Shown here one piece after another: positions 26,454-45,776 of a stretch of DNA of 64,000 nt. The stretch's first letter is position 1. Every line of letters starts with the position of its first letter. The notes under the pieces are model-generated. The model saw nothing but the letters and a program-made list of their open reading frames with translations. It did no database searches and was not told the DNA's origin. Made by a program: the position numbers and the translations under genes. Source of the stretch: Candidatus Kuenenia stuttgartensis (GTDB lineage: Bacteria > Pseudomonadota > Alphaproteobacteria > SMXS01); the NCBI GenBank assembly GCA_943329845.2, contig CALQFM020000014.1:1509-65508 (forward strand). The letters run 5' to 3'.

Positions 26454-26605
26454 GTGGATGAACGATCCCGTGAATCACGGGGATAAGTCCGCAGGCCGTT
26501 GACCGCGCGAGGCTTTCGGCGGTGGCCCCGAAACATAACAGGAACGAAGGTTGCCGCGCCGGGGATTCCGGCCTATCATCCCCGGCCCAACCGATGGACC
26601 TGCAG

Positions 26606-28918
26606 ATGAGCGCGACGGCACCGATCTCGACCCAGATCTGGGACATGAAGTACCGGCTGAAGGCCGCGGACGGCACGCCCGTCGACAAATCCGTCGACGA
26701 CACCTGGCGACGCATCGCCCGCGCGCTGGCCGAGCCGGAGCCATCGGAACAGCGCGACCACTGGGAAGCCCGCTTTCACGAGGCGCTCGACGGCTTCAAA
26801 TTCCTGCCCGCCGGCCGCATCGTCGCCGGCGCCGGCAGCGCGCGCGACGTCACCCTGTTCAACTGCTTCGTCATGGGTACCATCCCCGACGACATGAGCG
26901 GCATCTTCGACAATCTGCGCGAAGCCGCGCTGACCATGCAGAAGGGCGGCGGCATCGGCTACGACTTCTCCACGCTGCGGCCCAAGGGCGCGCGGGTGAA
27001 GGGCGTCGGCGCCGACGCGTCGGGCCCGCTGCCGTTCATGGATGTGTGGGACGCCATGTGCCGCACGATCATGAGCGCGGGCCACCGGCGCGGCGCCATG
27101 ATGGCCACCATGCGCTGCGATCACCCGGACATCGAGGCGTTCATCGCCGCCAAGCAGGATCCCGGCCGCCTGCGGATGTTCAACATGTCGGTGCTGGTGA
27201 CCGACGCATTCATCGAGGCGGTGAAGAGCGACGGCACCTGGGACCTGGTGTTCGACGGCGCCGTCCACAAGACCATGGCCGCGCGCGAGCTGTGGGACTC
27301 GATCATGCGGGCGACCTTCGCCTATGCCGAGCCTGGCGTGATCTTCATCGACCGTATTAACGCATTGAATAACCTATATTATTGCGAAACCATTTCCTCG
27401 ACCAACCCCTGTGGAGAGCAGCCCCTCCCCCCCTACGGCGCGTGCCTGCTCGGGTCCATCAACCTGGCGATGCTGGTGAAGGAGCCGTTCACGGCGGATG
27501 CGACCGTGGACCTGGACGCGCTCGACGACCTGGTCACCACCGCCGTGCGGATGATGGACAACGTGGTCGACACCTCCCGCTTCCCGCTGGAGCAGCAGGC
27601 GCATGAGGCGCTGGCCAAGCGGCGTATCGGGCTTGGCGTCACCGGCCTGGCCGACGCGCTGATCATGTGCCGCACGCGCTACGGCTCGGCGGCGGCCGTC
27701 GAACTGACCGAAGTCTGGATGCGCCGTATCCAGCGGGCCGCCTATCTGGCGTCGGCGGCGCTGGCTGCCGAGAAGGGCGCGTTCCCGCTGTTCGACGCCG
27801 ACAAATACCTGGCCGGCGCCACCATTTCCGCGCTCGACGAGGACGTGAAGGCGGCGATCCGCGAGCACGGCATCCGCAACGCGCTGCTCACCTCGGTCGC
27901 GCCCACGGGCACCATCTCGCTGTTCGCCGACAACGTCTCGTCGGGGCTGGAACCGGTGTTCAGCTTCACCTACACCCGCAAGGTGCTGATGCCGGACGGC
28001 TCGCGCAAGGAGGAGACGGTCTCCGACTACGCCTACCGGCAGTACATCCGCCAGTTCGGCGACAAGGCGGCGCTGCCCGACTATTTCGTCACCGCCCAGA
28101 CCCTGACGCCGGACGACCATGTCCGCATGCAGGCGGCGGTGCAGAAATATGTCGACAGCTCGATCTCGAAAACCATCAACGTCCCCGAGGACATCTCGTT
28201 CGACGACTTCAAGGGCGTCTACATGCAGGCCTGGGAGCTGGGCTGCAAGGGCTGCACCACCTACCGGCCCAACGACGTCACCGGCTCGGTGCTGGAGACC
28301 ACCAAGGCCGACGCCGACGAGCCGCAGCTGCCACTCGATGCGCCCAAGCCGCGCCACGCCGACGAGTACGAGGCGGGCGGCGTGGTCTACATGACGCGGC
28401 CGCTCGACCGGCCCGAGGCGCTGCCCGGCAAGACCTACAAGATCAAGTGGCCCGACAGCGACCACGCCATGTACATCACCCTCAACGATGTGATCCAGGA
28501 TGGAAGGCGCCGGCCCTTCGAGATATTCATCAATTCGAAGAACATGGAGCACTACGCCTGGACCCTGGGCCTCACCCGGATGATCAGCGCCGTATTCCGG
28601 CGCGGCGGCGACGTGTCGTTCGTGGTCGAGGAGCTGAAGGCCGTGTTCGACCCGCGCGGCGGCCACTGGGTGAAGGGCCACTATGTGCCCTCGCTGCTCG
28701 CCGCCATCGGCGAGGTCATCGAGCAGCACCTGATCGATATCGGCTTCATCAAGAAGGAACAGGACTTCAGCACCAAGGCCGAGCGCATGAAGCTCGCCGT
28801 GGGTGACAATGGCGACCTGCCCAACATGCGCTCATGCCCCAAATGCGGCGCGCCCACCCTGATCCGCCAGGAAGGCTGCGACACCTGCATATCCTGCGGC
28901 CACTCGAAGTGCGGCTAG
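26606..28918 (+). CDS. nrdJ: Class II (adenosylcobalamin-dependent) ribonucleotide reductase
   Basis: FLPAGR, LFNCFV, GGGIG, TNPCGEQ, APTGT, KGCTTYR and C-terminal CPKC...CxxC. Single uninterrupted ORF. Confidence 0.96.
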   Translation: MSATAPISTQIWDMKYRLKAADGTPVDKSVDDTWRRIARALAEPEPSEQRDHWEARFHEALDGFKFLPAGRIVAGAGSARDVTLFNCFVMGTIPDDMSGIFDNLREAALTMQKGGGIGYDFSTLRPKGARVKGVGADASGPLPFMDVWDAMCRTIMSAGHRRGAMMATMRCDHPDIEAFIAAKQDPGRLRMFNMSVLVTDAFIEAVKSDGTWDLVFDGAVHKTMAARELWDSIMRATFAYAEPGVIFIDRINALNNLYYCETISSTNPCGEQPLPPYGACLLGSINLAMLVKEPFTADATVDLDALDDLVTTAVRMMDNVVDTSRFPLEQQAHEALAKRRIGLGVTGLADALIMCRTRYGSAAAVELTEVWMRRIQRAAYLASAALAAEKGAFPLFDADKYLAGATISALDEDVKAAIREHGIRNALLTSVAPTGTISLFADNVSSGLEPVFSFTYTRKVLMPDGSRKEETVSDYAYRQYIRQFGDKAALPDYFVTAQTLTPDDHVRMQAAVQKYVDSSISKTINVPEDISFDDFKGVYMQAWELGCKGCTTYRPNDVTGSVLETTKADADEPQLPLDAPKPRHADEYEAGGVVYMTRPLDRPEALPGKTYKIKWPDSDHAMYITLNDVIQDGRRRPFEIFINSKNMEHYAWTLGLTRMISAVFRRGGDVSFVVEELKAVFDPRGGHWVKGHYVPSLLAAIGEVIEQHLIDIGFIKKEQDFSTKAERMKLAVGDNGDLPNMRSCPKCGAPTLIRQEGCDTCISCGHSKCG

Positions 28919-42296: not shown

Positions 42297-44987
<2,691 letters not shown>

Positions 44988-45131
44988 GTCACGATGCTCC
45001 TGATTGAGTTGTTTCCGGCTGATCCTGCCGGTTTTGCCCCAATTACCCCCGGTTGCCAACCGCAAAGTTGGACGGGCGGCGGCCAACGGCGCTAAGGTCC
45101 TGCGCGAGATCAGCGGAGCCACGACCCACGC

Positions 45132-45776
45132 ATGCCAAATGCCGGTATCATCGGCCTCACCGTCGACAACCTCACCTGCCGGCGCGGCGAACATGAGGTT
45201 TTCGCAGGGCTGTCGTGCAGCGTTCATCCCGGCGACGTGCTGTATCTGCGCGGACCGAACGGCGCGGGGAAGTCGAGTCTGCTGCGAATCCTCGCCGGCT
45301 TCATCGCGCCGGCGGCCGGCGCCGTAGGCTGGGATGGCGAGGACGTCGCCGTCGATCCGCTCGCCCATCGCTCGCGGCTGCACTATGTGGGCCACCTGGA
45401 CACGCTGAAGCCGGTGCTGACTGCCGCCGAGAACCTGTCGACCCAGGCCGCCATGCTGGAAGAGCAGGCAGACGTGGATACCGCGCTCCGGCGGTTCGGC
45501 CTCGGCAATCTGCGCGACCTGCCGGCGCGGTTCCTGTCGGCGGGCCAGCGGCGCCGGCTCGCGCTCGCCCGGCTGGCGGCGGTGCCGCGTCCGCTCTGGC
45601 TGCTCGACGAGCCCACGGTGGCACTCGACGCGGGGTCGGTGGAACGGCTCGAAACCCTGATCGCCGAACACCGCGCCACCGGCGGCATGGCGGTGATCGC
45701 CACCCACACGGACATGAACCTTCCCGGCGCCTACACGCTCGAGCTGGAAGGCCGGCAGCGGGTGGCGGCGCCATGA
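45132..45776 (+). CDS. ccmA: Heme ABC exporter ATP-binding protein CcmA
   Basis: [21 protein letters not shown] and WLLDEP motifs. Confidence 0.93.

Follow-up and report, generated by a model that had tools for sequence, protein, structure and literature searches.

The window analysed here is a 64,000-nucleotide (64-kb) stretch of contig CALQFM020000014.1, deposited as Candidatus Kuenenia stuttgartensis. Its nrdJ gene, encoding a class II adenosylcobalamin-dependent ribonucleotide reductase (RNR), carries a short run of unusual codons over the catalytic motif. Bases 27353-27433 lie in frame and encode RINALNNLYYCETISSTNPCGEQPLPP; the catalytic finger-loop TNPCGEQ, with its radical cysteine, is intact in this translation, which includes STNPCGEQPLPP. 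Comparison with sister alleles shows the patch to be a tract that is phylogenetically incongruent with its flanks, sharply bounded and located on the homing site of an intein. It is most likely the footprint of intein invasion and loss rather than a regulatory signal or a fault of assembly. The features of the locus are given below, where WIN denotes the window's own nrdJ allele; throughout, L-numbers are DNA loci and P-numbers are proteins.

26606 to 28918, forward strand: nrdJ, intein-less allele for a class II adenosylcobalamin-dependent RNR of 770 amino acids, assigned from Pfam domains, start match and synteny.
27355 to 27433, forward strand: recoded (mosaic) tract, with 23-27 of 79 nucleotides (nt) unlike the three closest alleles, as against 5-6% elsewhere.
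27409 to 27410, forward strand: vacant intein insertion point, between the CCC (Pro) and TGT (Cys) codons of NPCGE, where relatives carry a 1125-nt LAGLIDADG intein.
27320 to 27354, forward strand: upstream near-invariant block in clade alignments (gcc tat gcc gag ccN ggc gtg atc ttc atc gac cg), putative left junction of the tract.
27434 to 27453, forward strand: downstream near-invariant block (tac ggc gcg tgc ctg ctc gg), putative right junction of the tracts of L082 and L083.
27434 to 27530, forward strand: possible GC-normal continuation of the imported tract, marked by divergence from clade-mates and by sites in common with L169.

The nrdJ open reading frame (ORF) spans 26522-28918; its true start is the ATG at 26606, where the sequence MSATAPIS agrees with P0001-P0005, and its stop lies at 28918. 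The product matches Ribonuc_red_lgC (PF02867, the barrel; 4.8e-127) and PF00317 (lgN, the N-terminal all-alpha domain; 8.3e-11), and has a C-terminal TSCPD domain. Dependence on B12 is predicted by homology, relatives being named adenosylcobalamin-dependent RNR by their sources. The nearest named relatives belong to Emcibacter sp. (92% identity) and Iodidimonas sp. (84%).

The GC content at third codon positions (GC3) of the whole gene is 0.912. Eleven of the 21 codons starting at 27353 end in A or T, the maximum for the gene; 21-codon windows off the patch hold about 6 or fewer. Given the amino acids encoded, a Poisson-binomial calculation expects 3.5 A/T-ending codons, and the probability of finding at least 11 is 1e-4. 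The codons are exactly those quoted in an earlier note made from the bare sequence, and the rare CTA and GGA to which it drew attention are real: among synonymous codons in the genes of the window, CTA accounts for 1.1%, GCA for 5.5%, CGT for 6.7%, GGA for 6.9% and ATT for 7.0%. The description in that note needs one correction: the 3' third (ccc ctc ccc ccc) is shifted from G to C and not toward A/T, so that the tract is codon-atypical (‘different’) rather than simply AT-rich. Three amino-acid replacements accompany the recoding (Q to A, R to L and A to S), all at variable positions. The patch is the strongest internal low-GC3 stretch among the genuine genes of the window; two nominally stronger hits were dismissed as spurious antisense ORFs. 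For a genome scan, the within-gene codon statistic alone is only moderately strong, and the comparative evidence is decisive.

An assembly or chimera artefact was ruled out. Contigs from four runs belonging to four studies, all independent freshwater metagenomes, match positions 27100-27700 with 0 mismatches, the stretch is present in 20 runs and the protein was called on 13 contigs. The exact DNA of the window was found in freshwater and lake metagenomes.

The three alleles nearest to WIN are the intein-bearing L081 and the intein-less L082 and L083. From these, WIN differs at a fraction of 0.29-0.34 of positions within 27355-27433 and of 0.055-0.062 outside. The transition is abrupt: relative to L081, 23 of 79 nt differ in the patch, 1 in the 53 nt before it and 2 in the 59 nt after it. 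Third-position differences from the three alleles peak at 17-18 of 27 codons, in a cluster that starts exactly at 27353 (permutation p<5e-5), and the next-best cluster elsewhere in nrdJ reaches 9-11. Synonymous divergence is saturated in the patch (proportion of synonymous differences, pS, >0.75) versus a synonymous rate (dS) of 0.20-0.24 in the remaining gene. Several codons have taken two or three changes, among them CAG to GCA and CGG to TTG, and such multi-hit codons imply long divergence, and hence import rather than recent point mutation.

The relatedness of the patch differs from that of the rest of the gene. Outside the patch the nearest alleles are L082, L081 and L083, whereas inside it the nearest is L170 (14 of 79 differences) and then L169, both of which are 11-12% diverged elsewhere. 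WIN, L170 and L169 have in common the A/S-L residues and the codons ttg aat, cta tat tat, gaa and ccc ctc ccc ccc. Since it is nearest to the more distant lineage L170, the patch is a recombinant tract. Damage-induced C to T hypermutation near a break was rejected on inspection, as the tracts hold G to T and G to C changes together with multi-hit codons.

The exchange may also have carried ordinary-looking sequence. Within 27434-27530, WIN is 13-16% off its clade-mates (background 5%), which differ from one another by 3-6%, and 8 of its 10 specific sites are common to L169. The imported piece may thus reach about 175 nt, with a GC-normal 3' part.

If the unusual codons reflected a constraint on the motif itself, relatives should show the same dip. 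Across 168 nrdJ orthologs with DNA, the median difference between patch GC3 and rest-of-gene GC3 is -0.02, a dip of more than 0.2 occurs in only 14, and the close relatives L081, L087 and L088 have none, which rejects a family-wide codon constraint. The internal AT-rich regulatory site that the earlier note offered as an alternative found no counterpart either: promoter-like sites are absent from the patch on both strands and its RNA fold is not unusual (z-score +1.16). With 0 Rfam families at gathering score in the whole 64 kb, which also leaves no cobalamin riboswitch upstream of nrdJ, an internal promoter, a terminator or an RNA structure was rejected. Any local constraint on the mRNA or DNA, be it a promoter or other regulatory site, a translational pause at the active-site loop or avoidance of RNA structure, is highly improbable as an explanation: it could draw on the mild family-wide excess of A/T third positions described below, but the sequences differ between lineages and their phylogenetic incongruence would be left unexplained.

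What does distinguish the site is an intein. The earlier note had named the NPC(G/S)E motif as a recurrent intein insertion point, and sister alleles indeed carry a LAGLIDADG intein precisely between the positions equivalent to 27409 and 27410. A protein search retrieved seven intein-bearing NrdJ proteins (P0005, P0014, P0016, P0017, P0019, P0076 and P0083), whose exteins are 72-90% identical and which carry an insertion of about 375 residues with Intein_splicing and LAGLIDADG domains (Pfam PF14890 and PF14528). In all seven the junction reads ...TNP/CVTAD...LYVHN/CGEQPLPP (slashes mark the splice points), which falls within the patch. At the DNA level, five intein alleles (L081, L085, L086, L171 and L172) were compared with seven intein-less alleles of the clade. 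Each of the five inteins is 1125 nt long and stop-free, with Cys1, TxxH and a terminal HN followed by Cys+1, from which splicing competence is predicted, and both LAGLIDADG motifs (consensus -GDG and -ADG) were recognized by inspection of the protein sequences. The ratio of nonsynonymous to synonymous rates (dN/dS) in the endonuclease domain is about 0.20, equal to that of the splicing domains, which suggests that the endonuclease is probably functional now, or was so through most of the clade's history.

The same junction, TNP/C...HN/CGE, recurs in 66 N-flanks and 61 C-flanks of homologs of this intein. Its hosts are the NrdJ proteins of Alpha-, Beta- and Gammaproteobacteria, Desulfobacteraceae, Nitrospiraceae, Firmicutes, Chloroflexi and archaea, and the site is invariably TNP/CGE, even where the upstream extein is non-homologous. 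In every pair sampled the intein is more diverged than the extein (0.43-0.54 versus 0.24-0.31 at 4-fold sites), and recent horizontal transfer of the intein among the sampled lineages was rejected on this ground. In viral contigs, phages and plasmids the intein had distant relatives only, one of them the SPbeta bnrdE intein (24.5% identity, E 2e-22). Intein-bearing alleles, which the earlier note had proposed to seek in relatives or phages, were thus present in the former (7 proteins, 5 DNA loci), while the latter yielded distant homologs only.

WIN is one of several recoded alleles. Among the 127 orthologs with GC3 >0.8, the seven most significant low-GC3 windows of 21 codons gene-wide are all centred on this site; they belong to L082, L075, L083, L127, L085, WIN and L040. 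The A/T runs of eleven lineages all lie inside codons -19 to +10 of the insertion point, and the third-position A/T (AT3) tracts of independent lineages end at codon -19/-20. The intein-less L082 and L083 (proteins 96-97% identical) carry a distinct, more AT-rich tract with the same boundaries as in WIN; its GC3 is 0.33 and 0.48, respectively, it uses AGA, ATA, CTA and TCA codons, and its residues include KR/SR and WYA/WYT. The closest relative of L083 is L081 (3.9% diverged), which bears the intein within ordinary GC-rich flanks; the two alleles are essentially an intein and about 80 nt apart. L087 and L088 are intein-less and have ordinary flanks. A metagenome scan for closer relatives contributed a single further locus, L089, whose contig is that of L082.

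One resident intein abuts a recoded flank. In L085 (P0014; 1805-2960; GC3 0.91), the eight codons straight after the intein, gaa caa cca ctt cct cct tat ggt, are A/T-ending or otherwise recoded, and the run resembles a co-conversion tract whose intein is still in place. This arrangement was seen on the C-extein side of L085 alone, the flanks of L081, L086, L171 and L172 being ordinary.

The clustering of anomalies also bears on whether an intein need be invoked at all. Ordinary homologous recombination, with conserved blocks favouring crossovers around the motif and the intein irrelevant, would profit from the near-invariant flanking blocks, which would aid exchange between diverged alleles, and nrdJ does contain further mosaic segments. 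However, the gene has many conserved blocks, yet the seven strongest anomalies in the 127 orthologs sit at a single site, the insertion point lies inside every tract, and the tracts are strongly codon-atypical whereas the other mosaics are not. We therefore regard this explanation as very unlikely.

The source of the imported sequence was sought in several collections. The best identity to the patch overall is 83% (L170). A blastn search of phages and plasmids with the patch and its flanks returned generic matches of 74-82% only; with the L082 tract the best match was 81%, to N4-like roseophages, and exact-pattern scans of viral contigs with the WIN and L082 cores gave 0 hits. The phage donor suggested in the earlier note thus did not appear among phages, plasmids or viral contigs. 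More informative matches came at the protein level from intein-bearing homologs. The N-extein of P0223 has an overall identity of only 67% to that of the window, yet the last 19 residues before its intein are RVNALNNLSYCETISSTNP; this protein has the unusual AL...SS signature of WIN, which is absent from the other 65 intein-bearing flanks. P0223 and P0241 come from ENA contigs of 83 kb and 8 kb, with the intein next to a ...NALNNLSYCETISSTNP flank, and represent a candidate donor type. In P0124 the intein stands beside a WYAETISATNP flank (...NNLWYAETISATNP) that resembles that of L082. The earlier note had also supposed a donor of lower GC content. The recombinant tract on the homing site that it envisaged is borne out, but a low-GC donor for WIN is doubtful because L170 and L169 are high-GC members of the clade and 27434-27530 is GC-normal; a high-GC relative with an already unusual site cassette is suggested instead.

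Separately, the C-extein side of the L082/L083 tract (L082:1801-1824, tgtggtgagcaacccttgccgcct) is identical at 23 of 24 positions to the nrdJ of an N4-like roseophage (L173, Roseovarius sp. 217 phage 1, FR682616.1), and the N-extein side is dissimilar. L082-like C-extein haplotypes also occur in mid-GC orthologs, one base off in L113 and two in L057.

Taken together, these observations make it probable that the patch is a short gene-conversion tract, derived from a divergent nrdJ allele, over a vacant homing site, and that the intein life cycle drove the exchange. The imported segment would span the vacant site at 27409/27410 of the 375-amino-acid LAGLIDADG intein resident in sister lineages; it would comprise at least 79 nt (27355-27433) and may reach about 27530, for a length of about 175 nt. 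Two routes may be envisaged. The endonuclease could have cut an empty site, the break then being repaired off a divergent template; alternatively, a foreign segment lacking the intein could have converted an occupied allele back to the empty state. By either route, crossovers would resolve only in the near-invariant blocks 27320-27354 and 27434-27453, and such confinement would make the exchanged unit a small cassette with fixed boundaries. As the catalytic loop encoded by the donor is the same, the protein motif would survive, and the exchange would alter no more than codons and a few variable residues.

Several points weigh against this interpretation. Most of the recoded positions are found 15-57 nt upstream of the cut site, beyond the usual contacts of LAGLIDADG enzymes, so that the recoding is tied to cleavage by position and not by mechanism. 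The family as a whole shows a mild excess of A/T third positions over codons -13 to +12 of the Cys codon (observed/expected ratio, O/E, about 1.8), with AAT at -2 and CCW at -1 and +7, a sign that a general effect acts here as well. The sampled inteins are old (intein dS 0.93 versus extein dS 0.42), and an intein-bearing allele of the window's own species was not found in the protein collection. Neither did a donor for WIN or for the other AT-rich tracts emerge from 172 orthologs, phages, plasmids and viral contigs. Finally, in 26666-26790 WIN and L082 agree, while L081 and L083 differ at 2-3 times the background, which suggests that nrdJ also recombines in the ordinary way outside the intein site.

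In the same gene, high-GC orthologs have a second family-wide AT3 hotspot at about 28799-28915 (codons +463 to +490), in the Cys-rich C-terminal tail; with an O/E of about 1.8 it matches in strength the excess around the intein site.

A stricter version of the co-conversion scar would have the intein home in together with foreign flanking codons and later be lost precisely, leaving the flanks behind. In its favour, L085 has recoded codons contiguous with a resident intein, and the inteins of P0223 and P0124 adjoin an AL...SSTNP flank as in WIN and a WYAETISATNP flank as in L082, respectively. TGCG, common to the start of the intein and the start of the C-extein, provides a 4-nt microhomology that could mediate precise deletion. 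Against it, template-free precise deletion of 1125 nt is very rare, and templated loss would overwrite the flanks. Two rare events would moreover be required per lineage, in several lineages, and of the five resident inteins, four lie between ordinary flanks. On balance we consider this sequence of events quite unlikely.

Another question is whether the recoded cassette has been kept because the endonuclease does not recognize or cut it. Such an endonuclease-immune allele would be compatible with import by gene conversion and would add a selective cause for its persistence; empty sites in a clade with a circulating intein would on this view have survived attack. All five intein-bearing alleles of the clade have an ordinary GC-rich N-extein flank, while the seven intein-less alleles comprise three strongly recoded ones (WIN, L082 and L083), two milder ones of the AL/SL type (L169 and L170) and two ordinary ones (L087 and L088). 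This association is equally expected, however, if recoding is a by-product of intein eviction, and the ordinary empty sites of L087 and L088 persist intein-free. Purifying selection on the endonuclease domain (dN/dS 0.20) is in keeping with immunity. At the site itself, 4 of 22 central positions (within 11 nt on either side) differ from the ordinary one, and all recoded alleles have a change at position -1, but three of these four substitutions, namely -4 C, -1 C and +3 T, occur individually in occupied flanks (L171, L172 and L086). The main recoding, at -57 to -15, falls in a region that is non-homologous among the NrdJ subfamilies hosting the intein and is thus unlikely to be a recognition sequence. 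Invasion-resistant empty alleles are known for the haloarchaeal MCM intein, where resistance acts via splicing and not recognition (PMC10643990). Immunity of the window allele is therefore possible, if doubtful.

A broader form of this idea is more tentative still, and we think it unlikely: the empty NP/C site of alphaproteobacterial nrdJ would be a small, polymorphic, horizontally exchanged cassette of ~80 nt, set between the two invariant blocks, whose codon-atypical variants are endonuclease-immune and are kept in circulation by conflict with a widespread LAGLIDADG intein. The variants would include the AL/SL type (WIN), the W type (L082/L083) and others in Stellaceae, Rhodovibrionaceae and Skermanella. 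If true, it would constitute a natural host defence against a selfish element through synonymous recoding of a catalytic motif.

The gene-conversion tract proposed here can be set beside known systems. Co-conversion of flanks and invasion-resistant empty alleles have been described for MCM inteins (PMC10643990), and interrupted RNR genes have been reviewed (PMC3653736). The nrdJ case resembles the LAGLIDADG homing cycle of PI-SceI/VMA1 in yeasts and of the polB and MCM inteins of Haloferax in having an endonuclease-bearing intein lodged in an essential gene at its most conserved motif, a sporadic distribution among close relatives and a short foreign tract over the insertion point. It departs from that cycle in that the tract sits in an empty allele with no intein attached, no donor having been found in the collections searched, and in that several independent codon-atypical cassettes have common boundaries; homing of the nrdJ intein is, moreover, putative. 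Like the RIR1 inteins of RNRs (class II NrdJ of bacteria and archaea; SPbeta bnrdE, a detectable relative), the sister-lineage intein is inserted immediately before the radical-bearing Cys. Unlike them, the window allele is empty, and the intein family spans very different NrdJ subfamilies, always at TNP/CGE, with no close relative in the phages or plasmids searched.

Phage homing endonucleases such as I-TevI of td, SegG and mobE in T-even phages produce co-conversion tracts and marker exclusion. Those tracts are likewise short, donor-derived and centred on the cleavage site, with an extent set by homology; they arise in phage crosses with known donors, whereas the nrdJ tract is chromosomal and natural, and its donor was not found. 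Homing endonucleases also show wobble-tolerant target recognition, and hosts can escape by silent changes in the target site. Inside a catalytic motif, synonymous changes are likewise the only cheap alteration of the target open to the host, but the nrdJ recoding lies mostly outside the expected recognition span, and its multi-hit codons indicate import rather than stepwise escape.

The elements of this picture are established: inteins at the RNR catalytic cysteine, homing driven by the endonuclease, co-conversion of flanks and empty alleles that resist invasion. What is new here, and unusually clean, is a footprint in an empty allele combined with near-isogenic intein-bearing and intein-less relatives and with recurrent, differently recoded cassettes. 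The homing-cycle model predicts footprints at empty sites, and clean natural bacterial examples are scarce. In this abundant freshwater lineage, near-isogenic alleles 4-6% diverged include one with an apparently intact endonuclease-containing intein and three with different recoded empty sites, a set that makes intein loss and host escape via silent active-site recoding directly testable. More generally, a codon-atypical patch of 60-100 nt within an ultra-conserved motif of a high-GC gene can mark a homing site, present or past, after the element has been lost.

As to the surroundings of the gene, the order DUF218, acyltransferase, nrdJ, ChaC (reverse strand), DUF2125 is common to relatives. 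In the 64-kb window, the Rfam scan, which alone was used for this purpose, gave no match to tRNA models. The runner-up low-GC3 stretch in a real gene lies at 44907-44969 on the reverse strand (10 of 21 codons), in the 5' part of the aconitase ORF at 42300-45707. The Pfam aconitase domain follows about 70 codons further on, and the ORF exceeds typical aconitases by about 240 codons, so the stretch is probably upstream of the true start of the aconitase gene.

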